DNA of 64,000 nucleotides, from the IMG/VR virus record IMGVR_UViG_3300027759_000051. The stretch is one strand, 5' to 3'. The stretch comes from a virus. Shown piece after piece: positions 1,357-36,886 of this stretch. The number at the start of each line of letters is the position of its first letter. Positions within the stretch are counted from its first letter, which is position 1. Position numbers and translations under genes: made by a program. The notes below the pieces were generated by a model. It was not told the DNA's origin. It saw nothing but the letters and a program-made list of their open reading frames with translations, and searched no databases.

Positions 1357-1603
1357 TTCTGTACTCTCCGAGAAGCTCTTCTATGTCTACGTTTGGATAT
1401 AGTTTTTGTGCTTCCTCTTCATCTATTTCGTCAATTTCTGTTGACCCAGTTATTAGTGACTTCATGACTTCACTTGTTTCAATTAGTTCGCCTTCGCGTA
1501 ATTCAAACTCGTCTAACGTTTTTTTTGCATCATCAAATATTAAGACCATAAGTTTTACATTATCTGTATTGTTTTTTACTTTTGTGAAAAATCTTAACCT
1601 CAT
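1349..1603 (-). CDS. Small acidic protein, candidate immunity protein for the upstream RelA/SpoT-like domain
   Basis: 84 aa, acidic, ATGA overlap with the stop of the 2338-aa gene. Confidence 0.55.
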   Translation of the reverse strand: MRLRFFTKVKNNTDNVKLMVLIFDDAKKTLDEFELREGELIETSEVMKSLITGSTEIDEIDEEEAQKLYPNVDIEELLGEYRNG

Positions 1604-4600
1604 GAAGAAACTCCCATTGTTTCCAATTCCCTGATTAGTGACTTTATGTCAACTTCTTGGAATGGCTGAAACTTTGTTTCTCCTATGCTGAGTAACTCGT
1701 CAGGCGGGTATGGAACGCCGATCTTGTTAGCCATTTGAACCATCTCATCATAAAGCTGACGGCGTTGTGCATTGTCTTTTGACTCCCTGTACGTCTCGTA
1801 CAGTTTGTGTATATCTTCTTTGTCTTCAACAGACTGTGGCGTGTGGAACTGTAATTCAAATTTTGTTCCGTCTGGGCCAATTGCTGCGATGTTTATGCCC
1901 TGATATGGGTCATCGCCCTTCCAGTAGTTTTTTATTCTTAGTTTGTATCCAGCGGCTTGTAGTTCTTCTACCATGTTCTTCACGCCGGAAACATATTCTT
2001 CTGGATCAAAAGCAGTTGTGTACCTGATTACGTCGCTCATTGACTCGGCGGCTTTTTGAGCATCGCCGCCATGTTCTGTATCTTTTTCATCAAGGATCTT
2101 GCGGACCAAAGATTTGAGTGCTTTTATTCTAAAGTCAAGACCACGCATTTCTCCTTCATGCTTATTAGCGAGGTCAATCAGTGTCTTTGTTATCTCTTTT
2201 TCTGCTTCTACTAGTTTTTCTCTTTGTGCAGTAGCTGCTTCAATAACGTCTCTTGGGGCGCCGGGTTTTGGTTCGGGGTTATCTGGCTCGATCATGTCGT
2301 AGCCACCGTGCTTGTACTGCACTTTTTTAATTGTTTTACCAGAAGATAGACCTGCCGACCTTCCGGGGGACGAGCCTCCCCTGCCGAATCCGTATTCGTC
2401 TTCAAGTTTCGCTAGGCTTTCTCTATCTTCTCTGCTCCATCCAGAAGTATCTGGGGCAACCGACATGAGGAAATCTCTTATTCCTGCGTCTTCTCCTGCG
2501 TACTCTTGTTCTCTGTCTGCGTCTTGCGAACGGTTGGCTTTTCCTCGCCCTAACTGACTAACGGTATTTCTGTACCAACTTGAGTAATCTGTTGATGCCT
2601 TCTGCTTGGGGTTGAAGTTTTTGGGCTGCTCCGCAGTTCCTTTTCCGAACCATCTTGACCTTGCGTCGTTATACCCAACTTCTCGTGCGCGAAGGAAATC
2701 TGGCGAGAACCTTCCGCCGACCTCATCTCGCTGACGTTCAATTGTGGTGAAACTCATATCCATTCCAGCTTCCCAGTCTGATATGAACTTTTCGTGTGCT
2801 TCGCGTTTTGCGTTCTCTTCTGGGTCTGGGAATTGACGCTCAAGATCAGGATCCCTGTTTGAGTGACGAGTTGTCTTGCGTCCAGAAGATAGACCTGCTG
2901 ACCTTCCAGAAGATAGACCTGCTGGTTGTCTGTCTTGAGTTCCCCACGGAGCGCTTGTCTCTCTCAAGTCCAAAACACGTGCTTGCATATTCTTGTTACC
3001 AAGAGCTCTATGCATAGCAACTCTGTTGTGTCCATCAATTACGAATATCTTGCCAGTTTCATCTATCAGCAGGTATGGGTCGTAACCCTCTCTAAACGGC
3101 TCTTCACCCGAAACAACCTTGTCTATGGAGGATCCCTTGAGGTGTGACTCCGTAGGGAGAATGTCTAGATCAAGATCAACTTTTGAAACAGGAATATCGT
3201 CCCACCCATCCCATGTTTTTGCTGACTCAACGTTGGCATCTTCGGTGTATTCGAGTTTCCAGTCCATCCCGTACTCGCTCATGGGGCGATCCCTGTTTGC
3301 CTTCAAGCCAGGAGACCTATCTGGTGTTGCTCCTTTTTTAATATCCCTAACTACTGGAGGACTAGAATTACCATCGCCTTTTCCTGATTTTGAAGCCATA
3401 CCAAAATCTGTGGCCCACTTGTTTGCTTCCCTGAGTATCTCGGATATTGGAGAGTCAACCACGATAACGTTTAGTTCAAGGTCGCCAAGTTTTCCATCGC
3501 TTAGGTCTCTTCCTACCTGAGCAGCCCATCTGTGGTGTCCGTCAATAACGTAGCCGTCTCTACTTACAAATATTGCTTCACCTTCTGGATCAAATTTTTC
3601 GTTTGTGATCATTCCCACTACTTTTGATCCAACTAACTCATTTTGCGTTGCTTTAAGTTCTGAGGCTTTTACCTTTTTCCTCTTTACGCCTATTCCTATT
3701 TTAGATAGGTGCTCTTCAAATGCTTTTGTTCCGTCAACTCCGCCCCCTTTGTCCTTTGGCAACTTGTCAGCATCAGAACCCGGAACTGGAGTACCACTGA
3801 ACTGTGGCATATTTATTCTTTCTATGCCCTTTGAATCAGAGCAGAACAAGTTTGTTCCCGGCACAGAGACTCTACATAGGTCATAGTTTGGAGCCTTGTC
3901 TCCCTTGCTCAAGGCATCCTGAACTATCTCGTTTAGTTTGTCAATCAATGTTGATACTTGGTCAACTGAATCAAGTTCAACTAATTTTCCTTCTTTTATC
4001 ATCTTCAGGGCATCATCAATTGATTCTGGCTTGAATATTTCTTCGCCACGGGAAGATACTGATTTCTTTGCCCCAGAAGAAAGACCTCTTCTTTTTTCCC
4101 TTCTTGTTCTGACTGCTGCTCTGGCGGCGTTCAGCTTTCCAAATGCCCAGTCCTCTGCGCTTGTGGCATCTATGCCTTTCATTAGCAAGGCAATCATTAG
4201 CAGGTCTTTTGTTCCTTGTAGGTTGTCTGGATCTGCGTTGTTCCACTCATTCCAAGCACTTACCGCAGTTCCGACTAAGCCTGAACTTAACCCAGAACTT
4301 CTTCTAGCAGAATTTTTTGCTTTTTGTTTTTCTATAACAGACGTTATTGCTTCAAAAAGTTCAAAAGAATCAAAATCTGCTTCGTTTTCTGGTATCGCTA
4401 CATCAAGTATGTCTTCAAGCTTTTTCTTTGTATCTAATTCAATTGTTCCATCTTCAACAAGGTAGTCAAGTTCGTCCTTAGCTAGTTCCCGCATAGCCTT
4501 TTTGCCCATTGATGTTGCGAATTTTTTAGACTCATCAGTAGTTAAAGTGTCAAGTGCGTCTCTTAATTGAGCGGCTAGTACATCTCTTCTTCTCTGTTCA

Positions 4601-7600
4601 TTGACAAATGATCTATCGCCGTAGCGAAGTGGTCTGCCGCTTGGCCCAACCATTACATCATCTAACTCTTCGCCAGAAAGTCTGACCCTCGGTCTCTTGT
4701 CTACTGAATTATGGAACTCAAGAGCTTGTTTGATTATTATTTCAGACAGTTCTTCATTTGACTTTGTTTTTAGCAATGTGCGGACTGATTCAGGTACGTC
4801 TGATTCGGATATTTCAATATCGTCGTCGCTTCCGCCGAACTGGAGAACGTCACGTAGCCTCTCAAACGTCTCGGAAGTGCGTGACTGTAGTTCCACTTTT
4901 CTATCTACCGGAGAAAGCTCCTCACCATATACGTCATCAAGTGGGTCTGGATCTGCTTTTGGTGCTCTTCTCTGTGGACTACTTGAAGCTTTTACTACAT
5001 CTATGTCGTCATTTATCTTTTTTGTTTTTGCTTCAATATCTTTTTGTTTTGTAAGCGGGGTAACGACAGTTGAAGACTTTCCTTCTTTTCTTCTCCTCGC
5101 AGCATGGGAGTTTACTGATTTCTCCAACTTCCTTCTTGTCCCCTTGGCATGCTGGTTTGGGTTTGGTCCTTCTTCGCCTATATTTGAGATCATTGAATCG
5201 AGTGACTGCATTGGGTCGTTTTGATGAACTATCTCAGCGATTAGAATCTCATTGCCATCGTCGTCTATTTTTGTGCCTACAATTTTAAGTTTTCCGGGAG
5301 GGAGCAGAAGTTTTTGCTCGTAGTCGTCTGGCTTATCTGAAGATAAATCGCTCCAGTGGGGGAAGTGACCCTTCTGTCCTGCTTGAACCCGAACCATTAC
5401 TCTTGTTGGCTTTTTCCCACCATCAGTAGGGTTGCCTTCCAAGGAATCAGCATTAAATGGTCTTTTCTTACCAAGAACTGAACCCGTAAGTATTCCATCC
5501 ACTATTACCAAATCAGCATCTTTTTTTGCACCTAGTTGATTCAAGTCAAGATCAAGCGTTGTCTCAATCTCAATTGCATCGGTAAGTTCCGACCTGTCAA
5601 TAAGTTCCAGAGATGGTATTAATATGTTGTCAACTTGACCAACCAAAGACCCAGTAAGTCTTGATGTATCGTCAACATCAGCGCCACTGCCGTCAGAGTA
5701 CATTTTGATGGCGCGACGATTTCTTTTGTTTATTGCCTTCGCAGCGCCAACTTGTTTTTCTGGATCTAAAATGTTTCCAATATCAACTTGCTCTGGATCT
5801 GCGAGTTGTGTTATTGCGTCACGCTCTTGTGGTGTTGCTGTTTTTAGAAGTTTTGCTCTTTCGTTTAATGCGTGCTCTTCTGCGTCTTTTTTACTGTTAA
5901 AAGTTTTAGGTTTTGGCTTTTGTTTTTTATTTTTTCCAGAACTAGTTAATATTGCATCAACTTTTTTATCAATAAACTTATTTAGAGAACTTACTGACGC
6001 ATTCTCGTCAGATTCGCTACGCCGATCCCTTATCGCTTGACGATACTTTCTTTTTTCTGCTTGAAGTTTTGATTTTAGATCTTCACTGATGCCATCCTGC
6101 ATGAGATCAACTTCTATCTCAGCAAGCCTGTTTAGTAGTTGTTCTTCTGTATCGTTATTGACATTATTGTTTATTTCTTCAATTCTTCTTTTTTCTGCAA
6201 TTTCAGATATTTCTTTATCTGATAGCAAGCCATTTTGTTCTCTCGCAGTTTTTAAAATGTCAGAAAAGCTATCCTTAAACTTTGAGTTTCCAGCTTTTTC
6301 GTATTCTTTTGCTATGTCACTGAAGTACGAAGAATCGTCAAGATTTCCATCTATTTTTGCTTTTTCTGCACTCGCTTCATGAGCGATTATCGCTTTAATT
6401 ATTTCATCTTCAGAAAGATCTGATGCTAGAGTTTTTACATCTTTTAGATTTTGTGATCTTCTGTCATTTCTTCTTTTTCTCACATCATCAATTGATGATT
6501 GATAATATATTTTATTTTTGGAAACTTTTGATAGCGGACTTGATCCAGCAGTATTGAAAACATCTTGCTCATATAGGTCATATTCTGCCCTATCTTCAAA
6601 AAATCTTCCATCAGAAACGTCATCCATCCACTCAAGCGCCCCATCAACGTCGTCGCCCCATATGAGCCCAGACATTCTTAATGCAAACAATTCAGCAGAT
6701 ACTTCCGCTGCTCGTATCCCTGGGTTTTCTACTGTTTGTGGATACGAGCCAGCAAGAAACTTAACTGAATCAGAACGACTCATAACGTTATTTATGGACT
6801 CAAGAAGATCGGGATCACTAAATGCATCAAGAACCGCTTCTGGTGTTATTTCTTCTACTTTTGTTATTCTTTTTTTATTTCCTTGGTAATCAAAGTATTC
6901 ATAGTATCCATTTGAATCAATTTCTGATTTTATTTTTCTTCCTACTGCGGTTATTTGCAGAGTATGTCCAAGTTCGTGGTACATTATGTGCCTTGCAAAA
7001 CCTTCGTGACCCAAGGCGAGGGCGGCAGTCCTGCGGGCTTCTAGTTGTGAGCTAACTAAGAAGTCGTTAGCGGCTTGTGCATTTTCTGAGTCTGAACCAC
7101 CTATTGCGTCAATCCTCATTCTTGAATACTCATCAAGGCTTGGCAACATTGCTTCTTGGTTGTCCATTATTGTTTCAAGGTCAATACCTATTGTTGAGTG
7201 CTCAAAACCAGAGCCGAAAGCATTTGCCCTTGCCTCATCAGGACCTTCTGGGTTCTTACTCCAGCTTAGTTCCCTTAAGTTTTTTCCTATATGGTCAGGC
7301 ATCTGGACATACGTATCAAGCAATGCGTCGAGCATTGATCTTTCTGTTGCGTACCATCTGTCAACATCTGCTTCAATTAACTGCTGTCTTTGATTGTCAG
7401 ACATTTTTGCCCAAGCTTCTGGGTTTTTGTCTCTTAATCTGTTTGATATGACTGATACAACTTCGCTGTAAGATTTTCTATCAGTAAGTTCTAATTCAAG
7501 CAATCCTCTTTTATTGAGTTCTTCAATTGCTTCTATCCTGTCGGCGTTAACTGCTTCTTTTTCTGGAGATGACTCTATTCCAAGTGAATCCTGAAGTCTA

Positions 7601-8616
7601 GAGACTCGCCGCTTTGATGCTTCAAGACCAGTTCTTGCCCTTTTTGCTCCACTGACAAACCAGCGAAACTCAGACGGTGTTTCCTCTACGGAAACATTCT
7701 CTAGATCTAGTTCTGGAGAATATGGGTCATTTCTATTCTTTGCCCTTGTCTGCTTTACTCCCCAGTGATTTTTCCACCACATATTGTTAAAGACGCGACC
7801 AGAAGAAAGTCCAGCCGTTTGCGGTCTTCCTCTTATTGCATCTCTTTCGCTGAGTTCAATACGTGACATTTCATCTGCCACGCCCGTCACTCTTCGTGCA
7901 AAATCTATTAGTTTCCCTGGAGAAAATCCAAAGCAGTTTGAACCACTTGCATCAGTAAATTGGTTTGCGGCAGGACTTCCTGGAGGGCACCTAAACTTGT
8001 TTAAGTCGTCAACCCATATACCTAGTTTTGCTGCTGCTCTTGCGCCAAGGCTCCCACCGGCAACGCTCCTACCAATATTCATTCCTGGTAATTTTTTAAA
8101 CTCAATAGATTTCTCCATTGGTTCACCAGACCAGAGCTTATAAGGATTTACCCGCTCTTCCGAGCCTTCAATAACTCCACCAGTCTTCGGACTGATCTTG
8201 TATTTACGTACACGGATTTCTGGTTTTTTTCTTTTTTCTTCTGCTTCTGGTTTTGCTTTTTCAACCCAGCCAAAGTTAACATCTTTTCTTGATTCGTTAA
8301 TTTTTGATTGTAGGTTTGGAAGCCACAGGAACGTTTTGTTTTCTCCGCCCTTTTCTCCCGGCTTGAATCTCACACCGTTTATATCAACTACACCAGGAAT
8401 CTCTCCGGTGTTGGTTCTTTTCTTTCCGTCTGAGTCTTTTGCACCAGGGAGTGCTTTGACTGCAAGATCTGCATTAAGGCGTGCAGATTTAATTGAATTT
8501 ATTACTGAGTTCTTAAAAGCTATGGCAGTCTCGTCAAAGTCTCTCATTTCTGAGAGAGGTGAGAAAAGACTAGGAGATAGATAGACTCTATTTTTACGGT
8601 GTCTCTTACCCGTCAT
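1600..8616 (-). CDS. Giant multi-module (polyvalent) protein: zincin HExxH, degenerate ART-like domain, 2x ParB/Srx, shared module, C-terminal RelA/SpoT-like nucleotidyltransferase
   Basis: YHELGH; YEQKLLLPPG; VIDGHHRWAA and VIDGHNRVA; RIKALKSLVRK, DVIRY, YQGIN, ELQFHT; six GLSSG motifs. Confidence 0.8.
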   Translation of the reverse strand: MTGKRHRKNRVYLSPSLFSPLSEMRDFDETAIAFKNSVINSIKSARLNADLAVKALPGAKDSDGKKRTNTGEIPGVVDINGVRFKPGEKGGENKTFLWLPNLQSKINESRKDVNFGWVEKAKPEAEEKRKKPEIRVRKYKISPKTGGVIEGSEERVNPYKLWSGEPMEKSIEFKKLPGMNIGRSVAGGSLGARAAAKLGIWVDDLNKFRCPPGSPAANQFTDASGSNCFGFSPGKLIDFARRVTGVADEMSRIELSERDAIRGRPQTAGLSSGRVFNNMWWKNHWGVKQTRAKNRNDPYSPELDLENVSVEETPSEFRWFVSGAKRARTGLEASKRRVSRLQDSLGIESSPEKEAVNADRIEAIEELNKRGLLELELTDRKSYSEVVSVISNRLRDKNPEAWAKMSDNQRQQLIEADVDRWYATERSMLDALLDTYVQMPDHIGKNLRELSWSKNPEGPDEARANAFGSGFEHSTIGIDLETIMDNQEAMLPSLDEYSRMRIDAIGGSDSENAQAANDFLVSSQLEARRTAALALGHEGFARHIMYHELGHTLQITAVGRKIKSEIDSNGYYEYFDYQGNKKRITKVEEITPEAVLDAFSDPDLLESINNVMSRSDSVKFLAGSYPQTVENPGIRAAEVSAELFALRMSGLIWGDDVDGALEWMDDVSDGRFFEDRAEYDLYEQDVFNTAGSSPLSKVSKNKIYYQSSIDDVRKRRNDRRSQNLKDVKTLASDLSEDEIIKAIIAHEASAEKAKIDGNLDDSSYFSDIAKEYEKAGNSKFKDSFSDILKTAREQNGLLSDKEISEIAEKRRIEEINNNVNNDTEEQLLNRLAEIEVDLMQDGISEDLKSKLQAEKRKYRQAIRDRRSESDENASVSSLNKFIDKKVDAILTSSGKNKKQKPKPKTFNSKKDAEEHALNERAKLLKTATPQERDAITQLADPEQVDIGNILDPEKQVGAAKAINKRNRRAIKMYSDGSGADVDDTSRLTGSLVGQVDNILIPSLELIDRSELTDAIEIETTLDLDLNQLGAKKDADLVIVDGILTGSVLGKKRPFNADSLEGNPTDGGKKPTRVMVRVQAGQKGHFPHWSDLSSDKPDDYEQKLLLPPGKLKIVGTKIDDDGNEILIAEIVHQNDPMQSLDSMISNIGEEGPNPNQHAKGTRRKLEKSVNSHAARRRKEGKSSTVVTPLTKQKDIEAKTKKINDDIDVVKASSSPQRRAPKADPDPLDDVYGEELSPVDRKVELQSRTSETFERLRDVLQFGGSDDDIEISESDVPESVRTLLKTKSNEELSEIIIKQALEFHNSVDKRPRVRLSGEELDDVMVGPSGRPLRYGDRSFVNEQRRRDVLAAQLRDALDTLTTDESKKFATSMGKKAMRELAKDELDYLVEDGTIELDTKKKLEDILDVAIPENEADFDSFELFEAITSVIEKQKAKNSARRSSGLSSGLVGTAVSAWNEWNNADPDNLQGTKDLLMIALLMKGIDATSAEDWAFGKLNAARAAVRTRREKRRGLSSGAKKSVSSRGEEIFKPESIDDALKMIKEGKLVELDSVDQVSTLIDKLNEIVQDALSKGDKAPNYDLCRVSVPGTNLFCSDSKGIERINMPQFSGTPVPGSDADKLPKDKGGGVDGTKAFEEHLSKIGIGVKRKKVKASELKATQNELVGSKVVGMITNEKFDPEGEAIFVSRDGYVIDGHHRWAAQVGRDLSDGKLGDLELNVIVVDSPISEILREANKWATDFGMASKSGKGDGNSSPPVVRDIKKGATPDRSPGLKANRDRPMSEYGMDWKLEYTEDANVESAKTWDGWDDIPVSKVDLDLDILPTESHLKGSSIDKVVSGEEPFREGYDPYLLIDETGKIFVIDGHNRVAMHRALGNKNMQARVLDLRETSAPWGTQDRQPAGLSSGRSAGLSSGRKTTRHSNRDPDLERQFPDPEENAKREAHEKFISDWEAGMDMSFTTIERQRDEVGGRFSPDFLRAREVGYNDARSRWFGKGTAEQPKNFNPKQKASTDYSSWYRNTVSQLGRGKANRSQDADREQEYAGEDAGIRDFLMSVAPDTSGWSREDRESLAKLEDEYGFGRGGSSPGRSAGLSSGKTIKKVQYKHGGYDMIEPDNPEPKPGAPRDVIEAATAQREKLVEAEKEITKTLIDLANKHEGEMRGLDFRIKALKSLVRKILDEKDTEHGGDAQKAAESMSDVIRYTTAFDPEEYVSGVKNMVEELQAAGYKLRIKNYWKGDDPYQGINIAAIGPDGTKFELQFHTPQSVEDKEDIHKLYETYRESKDNAQRRQLYDEMVQMANKIGVPYPPDELLSIGETKFQPFQEVDIKSLIRELETMGVSS

Positions 8617-8633
8617 CTGCGGGCCAGTCTTTC

Positions 8634-10196
8634 TTAGTTGGTGTCTGTGTCTGATTGGAGCAACTCAAACTCAACCAAAGATGCGATGAAACTTTCATCA
8701 ACATTCCCTGACTTCTTTGACATATCTCCACCCATAACCCAATTTGGTGGGATCAAGTTTTCTTTTCCAAGATCCTTGGCACGCTTCATGATGTGAAGTC
8801 TTGCTGCTTCTTTATCCTTGGCACGACCATAGGACTGCACCGCGTTACGCAAGTCTTCTTCTGAAGTTATTGGGTAAGATCCATCAGGAAGGGCCATTCC
8901 TTCCTTAGCAAGAGACATTCTCTTATCATCAGAGAAAGCTCTCTTCAAGGCGATCTCTGCTGCTTCAGCTTCAATCTCTTGTGCTTCCTCTGATTCGTAC
9001 TTGTCGTAGCCAAGAACTTCGCCATCAAGTGACACGAAAACATCGTATGACTTTCCATCTATTCCATCAATCTCTACAGCGTATGAGTCAACGCCTTCAA
9101 ATACGTCTGGCTCAACTGCGATTACTTGTCCCTCTATTGACTTGATTGCAATTTCAGCAGCATCAGAGAAACCAATAACAGTCATTCCACTAAGTGCTGA
9201 CTTTTGCTCAAAGACTGACTCGTCAAGTTTGTGGAAACCAACAACTTCTGCTGAAGTTCCATCAACGAAAACTTCACGTACTTGACCATCTTTTGTTTGA
9301 ACATCAACAACGAACATGTCAGCGGCAGCGGAGTATCCAGAGTCAATGACTATTCCCTTGAATTGTGATTCAACCAATCCTTCAATTTGAAGTAATCCGG
9401 GGAATCCTTTTTCTGAGATGCATCCACCTGGGCAGTCATCACATACTGCTGCGTTGCCGGGGTGTGTCTTTCTCTCAATTGCGCAAACGTATCCGTTTTT
9501 GCCAATTTCGGCAGCCTTCATACCCATTGATTCAATTCTGCGCTTACGCATGTCTTCGAGCATCATGGCTTTTTCTTCGTCCATCATCTCGTCGTCTTCT
9601 TCTTCATCTTCCATCATAGGCACGCCCATGCCCATGCCTTTTTTCTTCTTTGGCATCGTATTCATGCCGTACATCTTCTCTTCGCCGTACTCTGCTGCTT
9701 CAAGCTCTTCGTCTGACATTTCTGCCATCATGCCCATTGGCGATGGAGCATTACGCTTGCCCATGCCTTTTTTCTTAGGCATGCCGTGCATGCCCTTTTC
9801 TTCGGTCATTTCTTCGCCCATTTGCTCTGGAACATAAGGCAGTTTTCCGTACTTTTTCTTATATCCATCCCAGCCATACTGCTTGTAGTAGGACATCTTC
9901 ATCTCGTCCATGTCTTCTGGAGACTCAACTTCTTCTTCTATCTCGTCGGCTTCTTCGTCGCCTTCGCCGAGATAGATATTTACTTCGTTCTCATCTTCCG
10001 ACATCTCTTCATCTTCCATCATTTCCTTATTTTTGGAAATTGGAATCATTTTCATCTCAACTGGAGCTGCTCCACACTTTGCACATACCGCTGCGCCAGC
10101 CTTGTAGCCGCAATCGGTGGCTACTGCACCTTTTGCACATTTAAGGACATTTCCTTCTCCGTCAATGCTTAACATTGGTTTATTTTCAGTTTCCAT
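8634..10196 (-). CDS. Head-region protein with Cys motifs, Met/Glu/Lys low-complexity tract, PepSY-like repeats and a C-terminal ALPDGSYPI domain
   Basis: AAEIAIKSIEGQVIAVE...YAVEI...YDVFVSLDGEVLG is PepSY-like; SD AGGAG upstream. Confidence 0.6.
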   Translation of the reverse strand: METENKPMLSIDGEGNVLKCAKGAVATDCGYKAGAAVCAKCGAAPVEMKMIPISKNKEMMEDEEMSEDENEVNIYLGEGDEEADEIEEEVESPEDMDEMKMSYYKQYGWDGYKKKYGKLPYVPEQMGEEMTEEKGMHGMPKKKGMGKRNAPSPMGMMAEMSDEELEAAEYGEEKMYGMNTMPKKKKGMGMGVPMMEDEEEDDEMMDEEKAMMLEDMRKRRIESMGMKAAEIGKNGYVCAIERKTHPGNAAVCDDCPGGCISEKGFPGLLQIEGLVESQFKGIVIDSGYSAAADMFVVDVQTKDGQVREVFVDGTSAEVVGFHKLDESVFEQKSALSGMTVIGFSDAAEIAIKSIEGQVIAVEPDVFEGVDSYAVEIDGIDGKSYDVFVSLDGEVLGYDKYESEEAQEIEAEAAEIALKRAFSDDKRMSLAKEGMALPDGSYPITSEEDLRNAVQSYGRAKDKEAARLHIMKRAKDLGKENLIPPNWVMGGDMSKKSGNVDESFIASLVEFELLQSDTDTN

Positions 10197-10301
10197 GAAT
10201 TCTGGCTCCTAAGTGTCGTGCCGTAAAATTATACCTAAAATTTAGTCTATAAAAATAACTTATGATGAAAGAGTACCCTATTATTCGCTGAGAATAATGG
10301 A

Positions 10302-13607: not shown

Positions 13608-13613
13608 TTTTTT
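13574..13613 (-). other. Putative -1 programmed ribosomal frameshift signal
   Basis: mRNA AGA AAA AAA GGG UAA (A_AAA_AAA at 13613-13607) followed after 5 nt by stem AGGGGCGA/UCGCCCCU; the -1 frame is that of the downstream ORF. Confidence 0.75.
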
Positions 13614-16600
13614 CTGTTACGTCCTGACGAGAGTCCACGCCCAGAATCTCTTCCAGACATTTCTCCGCTATCTTCACGCATTATCAAGTCGCTCTCAAGC
13701 CCAGCGATCCATCTCTTGAAAGAAGGGTCATTTGGGTTTGGGGACTTGCCTGTTTCACGCCTGTAGCTTGCGAACGCAGAAGCCCTCTCAGATGACGGAC
13801 GGCTCATGAATGAACTGTACATCCTGTCGGTTTCTGCCATGTCGGCATCAAGCAATGACTCACGTCTAGCGCTGTTCTCATCTGCGGCTATTGTGTCTTG
13901 CATCATCTCACGACGCCCAGATGAGAGGGAAGAACGTCGAGCGCTTCTTGGGTTACCAGAATCACTGAAGTTCATGTAGTTAGCAACCATGTCATTAACC
14001 TGTGCTGACATTTTACCATCACCAAAAAATGCAGCTTCCGATACTTCTTCTGCCAAATCGTCTCGATTGCTTCTATATTCATCAAGCTGTTGATTAAGTT
14101 CATTTACTCTTGAGTTTATTTCTTCAACCAATTTTGTGTATTCGTCTAGTTCAATGTCGCCTTCATCAAGATCCATTCTTGCTGACTCAAGTTCAAGTTT
14201 TGCTGCCTCAACTTCTCTATATGTATCCGGAATTAGTTCTCTTGCATCTTCTAAATCCTGAGACTTCCTGTCGTACCTGTCCTCAAACATTTCAACTTCA
14301 TCACGGATCTTTTGAATAAAATCATCAAGATCAGCAAGACTATCAACCGTTTCCGAACGTAATGGACCTCCATTATTTTTGTCAAAGTCGTATACGTCCA
14401 TTGCGTTTATTTGTCTTTGTACGTCTGGATTTTTTTCGTATACTGCTTTTACTATTTCTTCACGCACCTTGAGAGCATGTTCCAATTTTGCAAGTTGGTA
14501 ATTTCTTATTTCATCTCGATATGGTGCTGAGTTTTCTGCGTTTGGCATTACATATGAATACAGTTGTTCACCTGAAAATTCTTTTTCAACTTCTGGTGTC
14601 TCTGCCAAAACTTGAATAGCTGCTGTCCTGAGGGACGATTCGTTATTTGCATCAATCCTCTCGTAAGCATCGCCCATTGGCTCAAACTTCATTCCAGAAG
14701 ACATTCCTCTTGTTGCTGTTGAACTGTATACAGATCCAGCTACCGTTCCTACGTCTACGCCGTCGCTGTCACTTCTGCTGCGTCCAGAGGAGAGTCCCCT
14801 TGCGCTGCTTGGTGTTCTAGGCTTGCTAGGAACGTCAACATCTTGCAATGCTGCGTTGACTGCGTTTGTCGCTTCTGCTTCAAGTTTAAAGATTTCATTT
14901 ATATTTTCTTTTTCTGAAGCATTTAGAGCTGGGTCATTTGCTTGTAGTTTTGATGCAACTTCTTTATAGCGGTTTAATTCAAGTTCAATCTGTTTTGCCT
15001 GATTGAAAGCCAATACCCGTATAACGTTTTCGTCAGGTATCAAAGCAGCAACATCATTAAAAACTAAACCAGAAAGAATCTCTTCTGCGTCTTCATCATC
15101 TTTTGCTTGTCCGCTGTCTACGAGGACATTTACTAAATTCCAATCTTTTATTAGATCCTGCTTGGCATCTTCTACATCATAAAATGCACTTTCAGAACCA
15201 ATGTACTCGCCATCTTCATCAAAGTCTTCTGATAAATTTTCTTCAAATATTTCTCTTGCCGTAGATGCTAAATCCTCATCATCTACGTCATATATTTCCT
15301 TGAGCTTTGCGTTGACTATTTTATTATCTTCTGATCGCAGCGCTTCAAGATCTTTATCGGCAGTTTCAAACGATACTCCAGCTAAGCGTAGCTTTTGCTT
15401 GGCTAGCCTTAGTGCTTGAACATCTTTCATACGCTGAGTTGATGGGTGTTCTGCAATAAGATCACTTCTTCTAGAAAGTATATCTTTGTTGGTTTTTAAT
15501 GCAGTGTCATACTCTTGTGCCAGCTCAATTCTTTCTCTTCTTAGCCTTTGCACTTCTCTTGATGGAGATGGTATATCAGTAGCTCTTCTATCGCCGTCAA
15601 AAGTTTCAGGAGCTAACTCTGCTACTGAATCAAGAACATCATGTATCTGCAATGGCGTTGCATTAAACCTGTAAGCAAGTTCATCTACGCTTAGTCCACT
15701 ATGTGAAAAATCTTTAGCTATTGCTTCAGCAACTAATTGCTTTTTGTATTCCGTTTCGTCTTCACTCATCTGCCCAAACTGACGAATACGCTTTGGCTTT
15801 AGTTTTCCATCAAATGGCAATCCCATCCTAAAGCGCCTCGCAGCTGCAAGTCTTTGCACTCTGCCTGATATGGCAGGGCTTTTTTCTCCAGCAACAACTG
15901 GGTATTCGGCTAGGAGTTCTTGGTACGGGATTGTAACGTAGTCCCTCCAGAACATATCGTGGTCTTCTGCTGGTGTATCGGGAGTATCCCAGTTATGTGG
16001 TCGGGTTTTTGATGTTCCGTCATCTGGAGTGTCATAAACCCATTGTCCGGACTTTCCGTCCCAACGCGGCCTATGAGGTTCTCCATTGAGTTGTGCGTAA
16101 TCGCTTGGATCTCTCTTTGAAGGATCGTATTCCTCTCCGTACCTACCAGAAGACAGACCACCCCTGCCGTAAGGCCTATCAAGGTAGTCATCGTACGCAC
16201 TGGTCATTGCCTCAAGCGTGTTGCCATTAGCCATTCCTATGTACCGATTATGAATGGCATCACTTTCTTCCCAGTACCCAACTATGCTTGCTGCATCATC
16301 TGAAGAAACGCCATTTTCCTTGAGTGCGTTAATCGCGTCTCTTCTGAAGTTTGCTGAATAACCATATTTTGCTGGATTGTCTTCAAAGTCGGCTTTGGCA
16401 ATTTCTGGGTCATAATCACGCGAACCGGGTCGTTCGCTGTTTGCATTGTCTACGAAATAAATCTGCTCAATATTGGATCGTTCATTGTCGCTGAGTTCTT
16501 CCCATGAGGAGAATGGTTTACCTAGTTCTCTTCTTCCAGAAGACAATCCTCTTCTGCCTGAAGACATTCCTGCTCTGCTGTATGGGCCAGATGACGTGCT

Positions 16601-19600
16601 TTGCCTGCTTGCTCCAGGGATAAGTCCCTCTATTCTGTCAAGCCTGAATGTCCTATATTCACCGGACTCGCTATCTATGCCACCAAAGTAAAGAGCTCCA
16701 GCCTTTGACCGACGAAGAGAGTCGTAAATACCATTATCCGACTCTGCTCTGATCTCACGCATTTTGCCGTTGTACTTGAATGCAACCGCATCTGGGGAAA
16801 CAAACAAGTATCTGAAGTTTGCACCAATGTCATCGGTGCGGGCTGCTGCCTCTTCTGGGGTTATGTTTGCTGGGTCTCCTTGGCGTGGATCAATTCCTCG
16901 TCCAGAAGAGAGACCACCTTCACCTTCTAGGCCAGCCTCAAGTTCGGATGAAGTCTTTAAAAAGTTCCGCTGCTCATCTTCGGACATTGAATCTTCTATT
17001 GCTTGCCTGATGTCATAACTGTCTTCATCGTACGAGCGGTACCCAAAGTCGCCGGGGCGGTTTTTGTAGTCGGACTTATTGATGCCGTGGTTTCTTTCTA
17101 AATAATCCCAACCAGGGTCGTCGCTTAGTGAACTCGTAGTGTTGGTCAGTACTTCATATACTTCGTAACCTAGATCTTCAGTGGAAAATTCGTCTATTTC
17201 TTTCAGGCGCTCAGCCAATGGCACATCTTTGCCAAGGGAGTTGACGACAAGTTTTTCACCAGTTGGCTTTTTACCAGAAGACAGACCACCTTCTGGAATA
17301 AATATACCTCTAGTTGCGCCACTTTCATAGTCTCTTATTGACTTTTCAAACTGTTCTGGCGTCATATTTGCTCTGAGGGCGGTAAGGAAATCCTCGCCAG
17401 TCATTTCATCAATAGACTCTGATATATATGCTTCTTCAACTTCATCGCTTGATGGGCTGTAGTCACGTTCTGACCCACGTGATCCAGATGACTCAAAACC
17501 AAAATCAACACTGCCCGCATACGAGTCAAGTTCATCTTCATCCGGCATGCCACCATAAACGGCATCATAGATCTCTGCGTCACTCATCACGTCCCGTGCG
17601 GAGTTTGATGAATAGTCATACCAAGAGTTATCACCTGTAATCGTTCCGTCAGATATCAACTTCTCAATTACGTCTGCGTATTTTTTATCATTATCAGAAA
17701 GGTTTATATAAACTTCTTCTTTGCGATGATCGGGAAGTGCTGCAACCATCCTCAGTCGTTCTTTTAATTGCTCAGGAGACATTCTTCTACCAGAAGACAG
17801 ACCACCCCTGCCATACGGTCTATCAAGGTAGTCGTCGTAAGCACTGGTCATTGCCTCAAGCGTGTCGCCATTTGCATTTCTCAGGTAGCGCTTATGAATA
17901 GCGTCATTCTGTTCCCAGTTGGCAACTATGTCTCCTGCTTCATCTGAGGAGAGTCCAGTTTTCTTGAGTGCATTGACAGCGTCTCTTCTGAAGTTTGCAG
18001 AGTAACCATACTTTGATGGATTATCTTCAAAGTCTGCTTTAGCAATTTCTGGGTCGTAGTCACGTGAACCAGGACGCTCGCTGCCTGGATTATCCGCAAA
18101 ATACGTCTGCTCAATAGCGGAGCGCTCATTATTGCTGAGTTCTTCGTATGAGGAGAATGGCTTGCCTAGTTCTCTTCTACCAGAAGAGAGACCACCTCGT
18201 TCGGCATCCATTTCGGCAAGCATTTCAAATGCCTTCTCATATTCAGCGTCGTTTGTTTTGTTGTTTCTAAGCTTTTTAATTGTTGGGTGGTCTTCTTCGA
18301 GGACCCCTCTGTCAATCAGGAAATCGGCAAGTGCTTTAGGATCGTTTCCTGCTTCTTCTTCTGCGAGGTCTACCCAACTCTTTTTACCAGAAGAGAGACC
18401 ATCCCGCTGAATATCTGCGGCTAGAATTTCTTGCATTTTCTGTGCAACCAGTGAATTTGGCTCCCCATACTCATTGGTTAATCTATATCCCGGAACGCCC
18501 TCATTTGAAAGAGCTTCCCTTGCTCTTTGCATGATGGAGTCATATTCTGCATCACCAGAATTCGCCATCTCCTCAAGCCTGCGCTCGGCAGTCATCATTG
18601 CTCGATTTTTTGAGGTATTTCTTAGACTTGGGTCAACTGTCCGTTTAGGCTTTCTAGGCTTTGCGGGAATGTCTCCAGATTCATTAAAGCGAATGCCAGA
18701 AGAGAGACCGCCTCTACCGAATCCATATTCGCTTTCGAGTTTGGCTAGACTTTCTCTATCTTCCCTGGCCCAGCCAGAAGTATCTGGAGCGACGGCCATG
18801 AGGAAATCTTTCATTCCTGCGTCAATTCCTGCGTACTGCTGTTCTCTGCTTGAATCTTCCGAGCGGTTAGCTTTGCCTCGTCCTAATTGAGAAACGACGT
18901 CTCTGTACCAACTTGAATACTTCGTAGAAGCCTTCTGCTTTTCATTGAAGTCTTTTGGCTGCTTTGCTGTGCCTTTGCCAAACCAGCGTGACCTTGCGTC
19001 GTTGTAGCCAAGTTCACGACCACGAAGGAAGTCCTCTGAGAATCTGCCACCACGCTCGTCTTGCTGACGCCCAATCGTGGTGAAGCTCATGTCCATGCCA
19101 GCTTCCCATGCATCAATCAGTTTGTCATGCGCTTCTCTCTTTGCATTTTCTTCTGCATTTGGGAATTGCTTCTCAAGGTCACGATCCCTATTTGAGTGAC
19201 GGCTCAGATCTCTTTTACCAGAAGATAGAGCTCTCCTGTCTGCTGCTGGTTTCTTGCTTCCGCCTTTTTGCTTCTTGAATGCTGCTGTTGCGCGTGCTGC
19301 GTCAACGACGCCTCTTGTTCCGAAGTCATTGATGCCTGGAATTGCTGGTCTTTGGTATGGAGTTCCTTCTTGAACTAATCCGTCGTTGTCGCCGTCCCAT
19401 GCCTTTGGATTAAATCTTGCAGCCATTCCACGGCCAGCCCTAGCAGTACGTCCTGCAAGGTTTCTGCCGAGTGCTTTTACTGCGTTATTAACTGCTTCTG
19501 CAAAATCTTTATTTACGCCAGATGTGAAAACAATTCCACCATCATCAACATATGCTTCTGCTCGGTAGTAGTCAATGATTGGGTCAATTGCCTGCTTCAT

Positions 19601-21070
19601 CTCAAATGCATCTTTTTTAGTTACTGGCAAGTAATAAATTTCATTGCTTGCAGACTTTACGGAGTATTCGCCTATGCGTGTCAACTTGACTGAAGGCACA
19701 AGCGCATCACGCTTGCTCTTGACTGCATGCCTTAGGTCGCCTTTTACAAATACTTCTAGGTACTTGTCTTCAACCTCTTTGAGCCACTTGACTTCTTCTT
19801 CTTGCATTTCTTCTAAGACTTCTTGCTTCTTGATAGGGCTTACCTTCACTACGCCCTCTGGGATAACGGCGAAGCGACACTTGCCACCATCTTCCACTTT
19901 CAATGCAATTATCTTGCAAACACCATTGCCTTCATACATGACGCAGTTTGAGCATTTGACGCCAATTTTTGCGACCATGTTCTCCGCTGCAGGCTTATAT
20001 CCAGCCCAAACGCCGTTCGCATCTTCGTTGAACTTGCCGTGTCTTTTGGTTATCTTTATAAGGGCTTCAGCAAGATCTGCTTCTTCCTGAACCAACTTTG
20101 GCTTTCCTGCTGGCTTGCTTGATGAATCTTCACCAGCGTAGTCAATTTGAACAAGTGGCATCTGGTTAGGCATGCCACCTGGCAAGACCTGTGGAACAAT
20201 AACTGTCTGATTTGGATTCTGTGGAACCATTGGACGCGAAGGCATTCCCATTGGCATCATTGGTTGTGGTTGTTGTGGCATCTGGCCTGGCATTTGCATT
20301 GGCTTATTTATGCGCTGTGGAGCAGAGAACATATAGGTACCGTTGTCATTATGAAAACGACACTTGTATGACTCTTCTTCGTCTTCTTCGCCAGTGGTAA
20401 ATGTGACAGAGCCATCCTCAATGGACGAGATCTTTACTTTTGATCCAGTTTGCAAAGAAAGTTCTTCCTGCAGCTTCCTCTGAACTTCATCTTCTGGGAT
20501 GTTTGGCATTCCCTGCATCATTGGCATCATCATTGGTTTTACGCCATCTGCGTTTTTTACAGAAATTGTGCCAGTCAGCTGATTAGCACCGTGCAAAACT
20601 GGAGAAACTTCATAGAGTTCAACTTCGTACAAGATGTTTGCTTGTGATCCTTGGTCAAACTGTGCACGGAGAGTTTTGTATCCGATAGACCACTCTTGCT
20701 CTTCACCAAAAAATGCAACATTGGCGAATGCTTCTTTGCCTTTTTCTGAGTTTAAGTTGAATTGGACTTTCGCATAAAGTCCACCGATTCCGGCTGATCT
20801 CATTTTTGGTGGGAGGCGAGGATCGTTTGGCGGAACCTCATACATTTCAAGGACTTTACCTATTGGATCGTTCCAGTTATGACCCCATACAACACGTGGC
20901 TTACGGCGCAGAAGGCTCTTAGCAAATGCTCCAGTTGCGCATACGTCACCAACGGAATCCTTGTTACCTATACCAGCAACAAAACACTCAACTATTCCCT
21001 GTGCTTGGTCTAGATTTACCTGACCAGTGCTTGCTTTGTATTGAATATTTTGTGAGTATGTATAGGACAT
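13601..21070 (-). CDS. HK97-family prohead protease fused to a long GLSSG-punctuated polyprotein
   Basis: N-terminal NKDSVGDV..GAF, VVWGHNW..PIGK, EWSIGY, LYEVSPVLHGAN; 14 x[LM]SSG motifs; SD AAGGAG. Confidence 0.88.
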   Translation of the reverse strand: MSYTYSQNIQYKASTGQVNLDQAQGIVECFVAGIGNKDSVGDVCATGAFAKSLLRRKPRVVWGHNWNDPIGKVLEMYEVPPNDPRLPPKMRSAGIGGLYAKVQFNLNSEKGKEAFANVAFFGEEQEWSIGYKTLRAQFDQGSQANILYEVELYEVSPVLHGANQLTGTISVKNADGVKPMMMPMMQGMPNIPEDEVQRKLQEELSLQTGSKVKISSIEDGSVTFTTGEEDEEESYKCRFHNDNGTYMFSAPQRINKPMQMPGQMPQQPQPMMPMGMPSRPMVPQNPNQTVIVPQVLPGGMPNQMPLVQIDYAGEDSSSKPAGKPKLVQEEADLAEALIKITKRHGKFNEDANGVWAGYKPAAENMVAKIGVKCSNCVMYEGNGVCKIIALKVEDGGKCRFAVIPEGVVKVSPIKKQEVLEEMQEEEVKWLKEVEDKYLEVFVKGDLRHAVKSKRDALVPSVKLTRIGEYSVKSASNEIYYLPVTKKDAFEMKQAIDPIIDYYRAEAYVDDGGIVFTSGVNKDFAEAVNNAVKALGRNLAGRTARAGRGMAARFNPKAWDGDNDGLVQEGTPYQRPAIPGINDFGTRGVVDAARATAAFKKQKGGSKKPAADRRALSSGKRDLSRHSNRDRDLEKQFPNAEENAKREAHDKLIDAWEAGMDMSFTTIGRQQDERGGRFSEDFLRGRELGYNDARSRWFGKGTAKQPKDFNEKQKASTKYSSWYRDVVSQLGRGKANRSEDSSREQQYAGIDAGMKDFLMAVAPDTSGWAREDRESLAKLESEYGFGRGGLSSGIRFNESGDIPAKPRKPKRTVDPSLRNTSKNRAMMTAERRLEEMANSGDAEYDSIMQRAREALSNEGVPGYRLTNEYGEPNSLVAQKMQEILAADIQRDGLSSGKKSWVDLAEEEAGNDPKALADFLIDRGVLEEDHPTIKKLRNNKTNDAEYEKAFEMLAEMDAERGGLSSGRRELGKPFSSYEELSNNERSAIEQTYFADNPGSERPGSRDYDPEIAKADFEDNPSKYGYSANFRRDAVNALKKTGLSSDEAGDIVANWEQNDAIHKRYLRNANGDTLEAMTSAYDDYLDRPYGRGGLSSGRRMSPEQLKERLRMVAALPDHRKEEVYINLSDNDKKYADVIEKLISDGTITGDNSWYDYSSNSARDVMSDAEIYDAVYGGMPDEDELDSYAGSVDFGFESSGSRGSERDYSPSSDEVEEAYISESIDEMTGEDFLTALRANMTPEQFEKSIRDYESGATRGIFIPEGGLSSGKKPTGEKLVVNSLGKDVPLAERLKEIDEFSTEDLGYEVYEVLTNTTSSLSDDPGWDYLERNHGINKSDYKNRPGDFGYRSYDEDSYDIRQAIEDSMSEDEQRNFLKTSSELEAGLEGEGGLSSGRGIDPRQGDPANITPEEAAARTDDIGANFRYLFVSPDAVAFKYNGKMREIRAESDNGIYDSLRRSKAGALYFGGIDSESGEYRTFRLDRIEGLIPGASRQSTSSGPYSRAGMSSGRRGLSSGRRELGKPFSSWEELSDNERSNIEQIYFVDNANSERPGSRDYDPEIAKADFEDNPAKYGYSANFRRDAINALKENGVSSDDAASIVGYWEESDAIHNRYIGMANGNTLEAMTSAYDDYLDRPYGRGGLSSGRYGEEYDPSKRDPSDYAQLNGEPHRPRWDGKSGQWVYDTPDDGTSKTRPHNWDTPDTPAEDHDMFWRDYVTIPYQELLAEYPVVAGEKSPAISGRVQRLAAARRFRMGLPFDGKLKPKRIRQFGQMSEDETEYKKQLVAEAIAKDFSHSGLSVDELAYRFNATPLQIHDVLDSVAELAPETFDGDRRATDIPSPSREVQRLRRERIELAQEYDTALKTNKDILSRRSDLIAEHPSTQRMKDVQALRLAKQKLRLAGVSFETADKDLEALRSEDNKIVNAKLKEIYDVDDEDLASTAREIFEENLSEDFDEDGEYIGSESAFYDVEDAKQDLIKDWNLVNVLVDSGQAKDDEDAEEILSGLVFNDVAALIPDENVIRVLAFNQAKQIELELNRYKEVASKLQANDPALNASEKENINEIFKLEAEATNAVNAALQDVDVPSKPRTPSSARGLSSGRSRSDSDGVDVGTVAGSVYSSTATRGMSSGMKFEPMGDAYERIDANNESSLRTAAIQVLAETPEVEKEFSGEQLYSYVMPNAENSAPYRDEIRNYQLAKLEHALKVREEIVKAVYEKNPDVQRQINAMDVYDFDKNNGGPLRSETVDSLADLDDFIQKIRDEVEMFEDRYDRKSQDLEDARELIPDTYREVEAAKLELESARMDLDEGDIELDEYTKLVEEINSRVNELNQQLDEYRSNRDDLAEEVSEAAFFGDGKMSAQVNDMVANYMNFSDSGNPRSARRSSLSSGRREMMQDTIAADENSARRESLLDADMAETDRMYSSFMSRPSSERASAFASYRRETGKSPNPNDPSFKRWIAGLESDLIMREDSGEMSGRDSGRGLSSGRNRKKG
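16145..16549 (-). repeat. Internal duplicated module, copy 2 (405 nt, GLSSG to GLSSG)
   Basis: RRELGKPFSS(W/Y)EELS...YDDYLDRPYGRGGLSSG matches 17789-18193. Confidence 0.9.
17789..18193 (-). repeat. Internal duplicated module, copy 1 (405 nt)
   Basis: Same length and highly similar protein and DNA to 16145-16549. Confidence 0.9.
18695..19231 (-). repeat. Module shared with the 2338-aa gene (2338-2895)
   Basis: RHSNRD.DLE.QFP..EENAKREAH...WEAGMDMSFTTI...REDRESLAKLE.EYGFGRGG present in both genes. Confidence 0.9.
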
Positions 21071-28875: not shown

Positions 28876-29165
28876 AATTTATAAAAAAGAATAAATCACT
28901 ATTCCCAGAGAACTTAACAAAACATTGGGAATCGGCAGCGCACAGAAGATACTCAAGTATGAACGACGACGATGTTTGTCCATGGAATCTAAGTCCAAAG
29001 ACAATTGATGAATTCGTACTAGCATGCGATAAGCGCAATGAGTGGCACAAGAGTAATGCCGGAGACCATCGCTATTCTTGGTGGTCATGCCTATTGACGC
29101 ACGACTTAATGGAAGACATCGCAAGAACATTAAAGGAAGTTAAAGATGCCCAACGGAATACATGA
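28872..29165 (+). CDS. Hypothetical protein
   Basis: ATGA-coupled 97-aa ORF. Confidence 0.55.
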   Translation: MKFIKKNKSLFPENLTKHWESAAHRRYSSMNDDDVCPWNLSPKTIDEFVLACDKRNEWHKSNAGDHRYSWWSCLLTHDLMEDIARTLKEVKDAQRNT

Positions 29166-31064: not shown

Positions 31065-31602
31065 GATTGTGCCCATTGATGAATTAGTCGTCCCTAGTTG
31101 GAGAGCAACTCACACGCTGAGACCAAACTTGCTGACAGTTTCAGCCTCCTTGGTAAAGTACGGGTTCATACAACCGATCCACGTTATGAGCCGTAAAAAC
31201 ATAATTATTGACGGCACGGAAAGGGTGAACCTATGCATGTCGGTAAAGAAACTATCTGAAATAAAAAGCAGTGGTATACCAGTCATTTTTCATGACATAT
31301 CTGAACAAGAAGCAATGATGATGCACCTTCAGTTCAATAGGGGAAATGGAAACATCGTTGCGAAGAGAATGTCTTCAATAGTAAGGAAGCTGTACGTTTC
31401 TAGTGCATATACAGAAAAAGACTTCAATGAAATGCTTTGCATGAAGAATTCAGAGTTTAGTTTAATGCTTGACGGATCTATTTTTAAGAATAGAAAGATA
31501 CAGGAACACAACTACTCAAGGGCGTGGGTTCCAGTAGAGGCTCCACCTGGCACGATTGACAATGGACCCTTCATAGAGAAACCGCCAAATGACGATAGGT
31601 GA
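31021..31602 (+). CDS. ParB-like (IbrB-like) protein
   Basis: SLVKYGFIQPI, IIDGTER, LQFNRGNG. Confidence 0.72.
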   Translation: MKWKQRKVMNIPKIEIVPIDELVVPSWRATHTLRPNLLTVSASLVKYGFIQPIHVMSRKNIIIDGTERVNLCMSVKKLSEIKSSGIPVIFHDISEQEAMMMHLQFNRGNGNIVAKRMSSIVRKLYVSSAYTEKDFNEMLCMKNSEFSLMLDGSIFKNRKIQEHNYSRAWVPVEAPPGTIDNGPFIEKPPNDDR

Positions 31603-36835: not shown

Positions 36836-36886
36836 AAACCCCATTCTTACACTCACGTGATTTTCATAAAATCGTGGAGCTCGCAA

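Follow-up and report, generated by a model that had tools for sequence, protein, structure and literature searches.

A short peptide tag between the modules of giant phage proteins headed by protease-type domains, and its possible role as a cleavage site

The closest described systems to the proteins treated here are the polyvalent proteins encoded by conjugative elements and phages, in which ArdC-N, MPTase, ParB-like, toxin-type and other conflict domains are combined (Iyer, Burroughs, Anand, de Souza and Aravind 2017, PMC5512222). They are predicted to be packaged and delivered with the DNA, and their peptidase domains have been proposed to process them. Assemblin-like peptidases are found in a few of them, "always" at the C termini (PMC5512222). 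Internal head proteins that are cut at a short motif are known from T4 (IPI-III and Alt, with gp21) and from phiKZ and SPN3US (with gp175/gp245) (PMC5694885, PMC7411985, PMC10052503). Here, we describe a locus of the virus record IMGVR_UViG_3300027759_000051 in which three minus-strand open reading frames (ORFs), called D, C and A, carry a recurring tag, [L/M]-S-S-G. The window is the whole stretch of 64,000 nucleotides. Its genes were read from the letters, and its source is an uncultured phage of lake type.

We propose that D, alone or extended into C, and A are "polyvalent" cargo polyproteins of the phage and that the tag is cut by a phage-encoded, site-specific endopeptidase. From sequence comparison, we give this explanation a probability of roughly 0.6. 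Each precursor would have a conserved N-terminal body with a protease-type domain (S78 in D, a zinc domain in A), followed by exchangeable modules. The modules would be joined by disordered linkers that hold the tag, which reads G-L-S-S-G-[RK] here and generally [LFM]-x-S-[SGR]. The tag would be the recognition site of the endopeptidase, and the precursors would be cut to about 25 separate proteins. The body would target the precursor to the procapsid, so that the cut products would be carried in the head and reach the next host together with the DNA. A tag in the tape measure protein would be cut by the same enzyme. Since all cassettes share this short sequence at their ends, the tag may double as a breakpoint for cassette exchange.

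The tag and the modules it separates

The tagged proteins, their recognizable domains and the tags are located as follows.

13601..21070, minus strand: polyprotein D, 2489 amino acids; conserved N-terminal body (residues 1-614), then 13 variable modules; 14 tags
20564..21001, minus strand: S78 prohead serine protease domain of D (residues 24-169); PF04586, E 8.4e-11, 42.7 bits against a cut-off of 21; phrog_80, E 1.5e-26
10302..13610, minus strand: C frame, about 1102 amino acids; about 72 startless codons, then a 1030-amino-acid ORF that begins with ATG (10302-13394); 5 tags
10497..11315, minus strand: ArdC module (ArdC-N and MPTase-PolyVal zinc peptidase), with a tag directly before it
1600..8616, minus strand: polyprotein A, 2338 amino acids; conserved body (residues 1-1442), then variable tagged modules; 6 tags in all
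6607..7566, minus strand: zinc endopeptidase-like domain in the body of A (residues ~351-670); HELGH at residues 547-551 (6964-6978)
2917..4083, minus strand: ParB/Srx-like module of A (residues 1512-1900); two VIDGH[HN]R motifs, at residues 1692 and 1861
1699..2229, minus strand: small alarmone synthetase domain (RelA/SpoT-type), the last module of A, after the tag at residue 2090
19217-19228, 18695-18706, 18386-18397, 18179-18190, 17789-17800, 17273-17284, 16901-16912, minus strand: tags 1-7 of D
16556-16567, 16535-16546, 16145-16156, 14783-14794, 14693-14704, 13916-13927, 13622-13633, minus strand: tags 8-14 of D
13458-13469, 13086-13097, 12777-12788, 11475-11486, 11325-11336, minus strand: tags of the C frame
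7798-7809, 4279-4290, 4072-4083, 2905-2916, 2881-2892, 2338-2349, minus strand: tags of A

Translation of the three ORFs gives 25 [L/M]SSG sites, 14 in D, 5 in the C frame and 6 in A. All 25 lie where an earlier note, made from the letters alone, had placed them; its coordinates are the lowest position of each x-LSSG pentapeptide, and the spans above run from the L codon to the G codon. The C-frame tag at 13458-13469 is upstream of the ATG of C in the same frame, and the other four are within the ATG-started ORF. The excess over a shuffled background, proposed as a check in that note, is large. About 0.3 tags are expected by chance, and residue shuffles gave means of 0.14, 0.07 and 0.11 sites per protein (maximum 3). 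The other ~14,900 coded residues of the window hold 3 sites against 0.8 expected. Two of these have a hydrophobic context, and only the tape-measure GGLSSGK, in a Pro-rich stretch, is linker-like. The local consensus of the tag is R-[RAG]-G-L-S-S-G-[RKA]-[RK].

The tags coincide with the boundaries of exchangeable modules. Residues 1-800 of D are conserved and collinear in all 80 relatives that were fetched, and the remainder is shuffled: beyond about residue 800, the modules are rearranged, placed in different proteins or missing. The ends of homology blocks lie a median of 17.5 amino acids from a tag, against 78.5 at random, and 25% of them are within 5 amino acids, against 5% at random. The ArdC cassette is found at positions from 825 to 2934 in different polyproteins. 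Of 12 non-redundant relatives, 11 have a tag immediately ahead of this cassette, and nine have another 1-50 amino acids behind it. One relative, L065, has its own variant tag on both sides of this module. In the close relative L107, which is 84-92% identical in C and A, D differs by gain, loss and duplication of modules with breakpoints 1-4 amino acids from tags. Homologues of A that are at least 91% identical can still differ in their terminal cassettes. Within D of the window, residues 961-1090 and 1509-1638 (17801-18190 and 16157-16546, minus strand) form a tandem-like internal duplication, 82% identical in protein and DNA, that accounts for one pair of tags. L107 does not have this module in duplicate.

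The segments around the tags have the character of linkers, as the earlier note had supposed. Hydrophobic residues are depleted in the flanks of the tags (0.186 against 0.276, p 1e-66), homology blocks tend to end near them, and in an AlphaFold2 model of C 1-800 all five tags lie in coil between better-predicted blocks, with a predicted local distance difference test (pLDDT) score below 50. This part of C was folded in place of D 600-1700 because the alignment of the latter was too shallow; a whole-library search with D 600-1700 returned only 24 matches, nearly all of them giants of the same family, with three small stand-alone homologues of single modules. The 45 residues that follow the tag at residue 270 are disordered in a model of A 271-900 (pLDDT 77).

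The serine codons of the tags differ between copies (TCT TCT, AGT TCA, AGT AGT, TCG TCG, TCC TCT), and the earlier note took this as a sign that selection acts on the peptide. The variation is real, but TCT makes up 69% of the tag serine codons against 22% elsewhere in D, C and A (52% against 21% in relatives), so the tag DNA is not free of constraint or shared descent. No tRNA genes that would account for this bias are present in the window. The bias, taken together with the breakpoints at tags, suggests that the linkers are homogenized by, or selected for, recombination between cassettes, besides selection on the peptide.

Two of the module identities proposed earlier are firm. The ArdC module matches PF08401 (E 1.1e-29), PF18818 (E 1.8e-37) and the ArdC structures 6sna/6i89 (E 2e-48 over 290 amino acids), and it has the defining domain order of ArdC, the single-stranded-DNA-binding ArdC-N followed by the MPTase-PolyVal zinc peptidase. 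The alarmone synthetase matches 8vx3, "SaSAS", over residues 2130-2306 of A (E 5.6e-16) and phrog_2859 (E 9e-53); Pfam RelA_SpoT gave no match to this module. Two more stand less securely. The WYL domain is borderline, at 20.8 bits against a cut-off of 21.8, and the pair of ParB-like domains in A 1512-1900 is suggested by its two VIDGH[HN]R motifs and a weak, sub-threshold match to ParBc_2 (E 0.037). Most modules are orphans without a known family. Effector-type modules in a relative include a Zeta toxin, RNase T and sigma-70 region 4. The A-like polyprotein of the relative G006 (L101-L102; ORF 34594-43716) contains another HExxH, AITIHELGHFFDS at residue 2856, at the place of a cassette, and in L074 an additional HExxH lies at residue 1384. 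The family therefore has other, unclassified zinc peptidase-like cassettes in circulation.

Tag versions in the family and the junction of D and C

A search with the protease domain recovers more than 595 IMG/VR contigs, and some of these are complete genomes of 148-172 kb. The tag, whose presence in homologues was part of the earlier expectation, occurs again in over 500 related contigs and is kept as a peptide across hundreds of relatives, in lineage-specific versions. In most relatives, the protease heads one continuous ORF of 2900-3560 amino acids with 4-16 [LF]SSG sites. The non-redundant giant ORFs hold 272 [LFM]SSG sites with a full context of ±8 residues, or 299 when the full context is not required and the window is included; the usual form is [RK]-[LF]-S-S-G-[RKA]. 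A clade with shorter protease ORFs has no LSSG and uses its own versions instead.

L069/G007: [ST]-L-R-S-S-G
L046/G006: G-L-[ARS]-S-S-[TS]
L065: [LF]-[SA]-S-R-G

Every version fits [LFM]-x-S-[SGR]. In G006, which is 91% complete, its version occurs in 14 copies, found only in four giant ORFs of the head region and in the tape measure. The window's tape measure protein and the central tag of the tape measures in this and four other genomes are given below.

36857..41308, plus strand: tail tape measure protein, 1483 amino acids; one tag, GGLSSGK, at residue 594 (38636-38647); downstream of the sheath gene (phrog_23)
Window: GGLSSGK
G003: ARFSSGA
G004: ALSSGK
G006: AGLASST
G007: ALRSSGA

These tags fall in roughly corresponding regions of the alignment. 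A second tape-measure tag is present near the N-terminus (residues 42-58) in G001, G003, G004 and G006 (L095-L098); the window has none there. Because the tape measure is not modular and changes its tag in step with the version of its lineage, the comparison argues for a common reader that acts on the tag in trans. It also argues against a mere linker or a recombination scar. Where A can be aligned with homologues of 54-57% identity, the tags are 100% conserved, and their flanks are less conserved than the interiors of the modules.

D and C appear to be joined at the ribosome. D ends in ...GLSSGRNRKKG*, with its stop six codons past the last tag. The minus strand reads AGA AAA AAA GGG TAA at this point, and A_AAA_AAA is an X_XXY_YYZ heptamer in the zero frame.

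13607..13613, minus strand: slippery heptamer A_AAA_AAA, six codons past the last tag of D
13574..13601, minus strand: GC-rich hairpin of 8 bp plus 1, beginning 5 nucleotides after the heptamer

The hairpin after the 5-nucleotide spacer has a minimum free energy of -23.2 kcal/mol (z -4.1), and none of 200 shuffles folds as well. The -1 frame is open for about 72 codons up to the ATG of C, and this stretch contains one tag and a module. No ATG, GTG or TTG is found in the C frame within the gap (~70-72 codons). Compared with L107, the gap codons show 8 synonymous and 2 non-synonymous differences, and in other relatives the corresponding segment is part of uninterrupted ORFs of about 3500 amino acids. 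The order A7-GGGTAA-hairpin and a spacing of 207 nucleotides are identical in four other assemblies from ENA and JGI samples, five assemblies in total. Assembly error is unlikely because the signal is identical in independent assemblies, including one that is only 81% identical in the C protein. The four other copies were obtained by protein look-ups; an exact search for the cassette in IMG/VR and JGI metagenome contigs gave no match.

We propose that a conserved -1 frameshift cassette at 13545-13613 (minus strand), new here, links D to C. Two products, D (2489 amino acids) and D-C (about 3590 amino acids), are likely. A fraction of D would be extended to D-C by programmed frameshifting, which would set the dose of the ArdC-bearing extension. 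The shift may instead come from transcriptional slippage on the A7 run.

Candidate readers of the tag

Two protease-type domains are built into the tagged proteins. In the S78 domain of D, H64 (GHNW) and S128 (EWSIGY) are invariant in 33 sequences, and their catalytic role is assigned from the family. In the zinc domain of A, H547, E548, H551, E638 and E642 are invariant in 27 homologues, with the last two Glu about 90 residues past the HExxH. This domain lies within the conserved tag-free body and is universal in the family; its HExxH is also present in the A homologues of the short clade. It is 29-37% identical between LSSG lineages, far more divergent than S78. Structurally, the A model comes closest to the anthrax lethal factor catalytic domain (1yqy_A, Z 9.8 over 185 amino acids, root mean square deviation 4.2), and the Pro-Pro endopeptidase PPEP-2 (6fpc) gave Z 6.3. 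No match was returned by Foldseek with the 630-residue A model against the Protein Data Bank (PDB), by a Pfam search of 27 A-body members, by a PDB profile search of the A body or by tblastn of the A body against cultured phages. A zinc enzyme whose S1' pocket is hydrophobic would go well with the basic residues that precede Leu/Phe. The zinc peptidase-like domain of A may be the reader and is at least as good a candidate as S78; we give it slightly better odds, but the evidence does not separate the two.

The earlier note held that the prohead protease cuts these chains. The part concerning the substrates stands: D and A are modular polyproteins in a head-gene block that is headed by S78, with the tag between modules. 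The part concerning the enzyme is not specifically supported by what we found. According to this explanation, S78 would read the tag inside the procapsid and cut D in cis or in trans and A in trans, much as internal head proteins are processed by T4 gp21 and phiKZ gp175. All family members have S78 fused to the chain with the largest number of tags, and both the enzyme and the core of the tag (L/F and Ser) are nearly frozen across the family. Enzymes of the assemblin fold cut after L/I-x-E in T4 and at V/L/I-x-A before S in herpesviruses. A tag of [LF]-x-S plus a small residue fits the general rule of a hydrophobic P3, any P2 and a fixed P1, as does HK97 gp5, with F-N-K before S104. The capsid proteins of relatives have a leader of about 100-160 amino acids, and at the end of this coiled-coil leader Q-L-[ST]-S-R, a candidate maturation site, is found in five genomes. 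In G006, however, the corresponding column reads F-N-Q-A, and the tag is G-L-A-S-S-T. The scaffold-like protein B is tag-free in all lineages, and the tape measure carries a covarying tag yet is assembled outside the head. S78 domains are 79-94% identical across lineages with different tag versions, and those of L046 and L069 pair with different tag flanks although they are 94% identical. We consider S78 a possible but rather doubtful reader. The ArdC-linked MPTase-PolyVal zinc peptidase is a very improbable one. The window encodes it, as do five genomes that use tags (four complete, one 79% complete), and autoproteolytic release by such domains was proposed by Iyer et al. (PMC5512222), but this peptidase belongs to a cassette that is found at different positions and has tags on either side. 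It is also absent from the 91%-complete G006, which has the full tag system, and was not found on the L008 contig (~30% of a genome), whose 3188-residue protease ORF has 10 tags. The chances given to S78 and to the ArdC-linked peptidase are contained in that of cleavage by a phage enzyme and are not added to it.

The tag may also be read by something else, such as a host protease acting on ejected chains or a partner that threads the long chains through the tail. The tags are restricted to proteins that could plausibly leave via the tail (the tape measure, D and A), and the lineage versions might reflect differences in host. The tag resembles no known host signal, and the tag-bearing proteins themselves hold two conserved phage domains of protease type; we regard such a reader as unlikely. 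In a further explanation nothing is cut. The tag would be a flexible linker or junction code and a microhomology for cassette exchange, and the giants would act uncut, as N4 virion RNA polymerase and ArdC/TraC1 are delivered (PMC5512222). The rearrangement breakpoints between close relatives fall on tags, the tag serines are 52-69% TCT against 21-22% elsewhere, and tags within one gene have flanking codons in common. Against this, the tape measure is not a cassette array and yet has the tag of its lineage at a comparable place. The peptide is invariant while the codons vary among copies, and a bare linker would need no invariant Leu/Phe and Ser with basic flanks over hundreds of phages. We think that an uncut chain has a real, though minor, chance of being correct.

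Three candidate lines of evidence on the reader were set aside. An "ELSSRT" after the protease domain in the short clade was considered as a self-cleavage site, but the window has ELSLQT and most lineages lack the motif. The capsid "QLSSR" as proof that S78 reads the tag is weakened by the FNQA in the G006 column. The presence or absence of MPTase-PolyVal as a discriminator is confounded by phylogeny and by the other HExxH domains in G006. When the S78 domain, the zinc domain of A and a 38-residue peptide with two tags were modelled as a complex, the score was 0.00 without controls, which is evidence neither way.

Several points weigh against cleavage by a phage endopeptidase. Cleavage, packaging, injection and the identity of the reader are inferred, and neither candidate protease is tied to the tag. 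B-like ORFs have 0 tags in any lineage, and the resemblance of the capsid site to the tag is partial and confined to some lineages; what usually marks a head-protease code, as known from T4 and phiKZ, is thus not seen here. The model of C 1-800 was based on a shallow alignment and has a mean pLDDT of 54. A rule of one tag per domain fails, since the long modules A 270-1442 and D 1639-2092 each comprise at least two domains yet have no tag inside. The tag could serve another purpose as a conserved linker motif, and part of its conservation could lie at the level of DNA or recombination, in line with the TCT bias and the breakpoints.

A fuller version of the proposed cleavage would take in the whole family. 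This family of tailed phages would have two protease-headed precursors with an evolving cleavage code of their own, a frameshift that sets the dose, and a dedicated new zinc endopeptidase that co-evolves with the tag. About 25 injected effectors would be released, the tag would be a universal plug for cassettes, and the tape measure would be cut too, so that one processing system would serve all proteins that exit the virion. Taken as a whole, this picture is speculative and probably wrong in some of its parts.

Neighbouring genes and comparison with known systems

The minus-strand genes of the block follow the order portal, D, C, B, A and then small ORFs.

21166..23253, minus strand: portal protein, 695 amino acids, first gene of the block, directly upstream of D; PF04860 Phage_portal, E 1.5e-48
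23490-24797, plus strand: TerL
8634..10196, minus strand: protein B, scaffold-like, 520 amino acids, acidic and Met-rich; 0 tags

TerL, the contractile sheath and the tape measure are all on the plus strand of the window. The HK97-type capsid gene is outside the window; complete relatives have it about 24 kb downstream of where the protease begins. Protein B has no match in Pfam or PHROG. Its C-terminal motif, DGSYPI..L.NAV.SYGRAKDKEAA..HI..RAK.LG...L.P..W, matches the C-terminus of gp27 of Gordonia phage DalanDe (L086, 5635-10536). B is probably the scaffold-like partner, since in gp27 this motif ends a protein in which it follows an S78 domain and an acidic stretch. It probably represents a conserved tail with which the protease/scaffold system docks to the capsid or portal. 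Low-complexity sequence rich in Met, Pro and Gly is present at the C-terminus of relatives' portal proteins (PGMP repeats) and in D at residues 176-310, after the S78 domain.

Other genes of the window lie outside this block. A flavin-dependent tryptophan halogenase (57246-58709, minus strand; PF04820, E 3e-104) has as neighbours a 2-oxoglutarate-Fe(II) oxygenase (59797-60399), a group-1 glycosyltransferase (54460-55527) and a weak methyltransferase match (55530-56327), an unusual set of tailoring enzymes for a phage. At 29146-31602 (plus strand), a PAPS-reductase-like gene (phrog_2302, E 2.6e-74) stands between two ParB-like genes, an arrangement typical of phage DNA-modification or anti-defence modules. 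A collagen-repeat protein (52443-53243, plus strand; PF01391, E 4e-19) is probably a tail fibre component.

Should the tag be a cleavage signal, this family of more than 500 environmental contigs, of up to about 170 kb, would be an example of double-stranded DNA phages with the polyprotein-plus-frameshift economy otherwise known from RNA viruses and retroviruses. The tag would then delimit dozens of independently folding effector modules that are probably delivered at the start of infection, among them anti-restriction, alarmone-synthetase, toxin-like and nuclease-like modules. Fast reshuffling of the arsenal would be explained by the short terminal sequence that all cassettes share. The system would also supply a new pair of site-specific protease and tag, and with it a natural scheme for loading foreign proteins into capsids. 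The proposal that polyvalent proteins are processed becomes testable, with a defined site and two defined candidate enzymes.

Among the papers searched, there was no description of the tag or of tagged phage polyproteins, and each known system resembles the locus in part. Among zinc enzymes, the gluzincins of the lethal-factor/Pro-Pro endopeptidase type share the HExxH and a downstream Glu with the A domain, and they cut defined sequence motifs. No relation at the sequence level was found by Pfam or PDB profile searches, and the structural match would indicate a shared fold and no more. The S78 domain of the relatives is nearest to those of actinophages. DalanDe gp27 (Bendigovirus; ON755184.1), annotated as a "capsid maturation protease" and akin to other actinophage proteins, contains an S78 domain of 41-43% identity in a 1633-residue multi-module protein, with an acidic region and the C-terminal DGSFPI...GRAKDKEAA as in B, and its gene is directly upstream of an HK97-type capsid gene. 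In gp27, however, the protease lies in the C-terminal third, and there is no repeated tag.

In T4 and phiKZ, many head-internal proteins have one short motif for the morphogenetic protease, and the products stay in the head and are then ejected, as is proposed here. These systems differ in having a protease of the T4 type and a motif with Glu as its last residue (L/I-x-E, A-x-E). The substrates there have their own genes and propeptides and are not long strings of unrelated modules, and their scaffold and capsid carry the same motif, which is not the case here. In Gag/Gag-Pol and other viral polyproteins with an embedded protease and a -1 frameshift, protease, functional units and short cleavage sites (here putative) are likewise placed in one chain, and a heptamer with a hairpin is used for a longer, rarer product. 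The present system, in contrast, belongs to tailed double-stranded DNA phages, and its accessory or effector cassettes differ between close relatives. The likeness to Gag/Gag-Pol is one of strategy, not of descent.

The polyvalent proteins are likewise giant multi-domain proteins encoded near portal and terminase genes, and D-C and A agree with them in combining several unrelated conflict-type domains in genes beside the portal and TerL genes. They differ in the position of the peptidase, which is C-terminal in the assemblin-like cases and N-terminal here, where S78 heads the chain, and PMC5512222 describes no recurrent cleavage or junction tag. What this locus adds to the polyvalent proteins is a set of lineage-specific tags, the covariation of the tape measure with them, a second conserved domain of zinc type and an extension by frameshifting.

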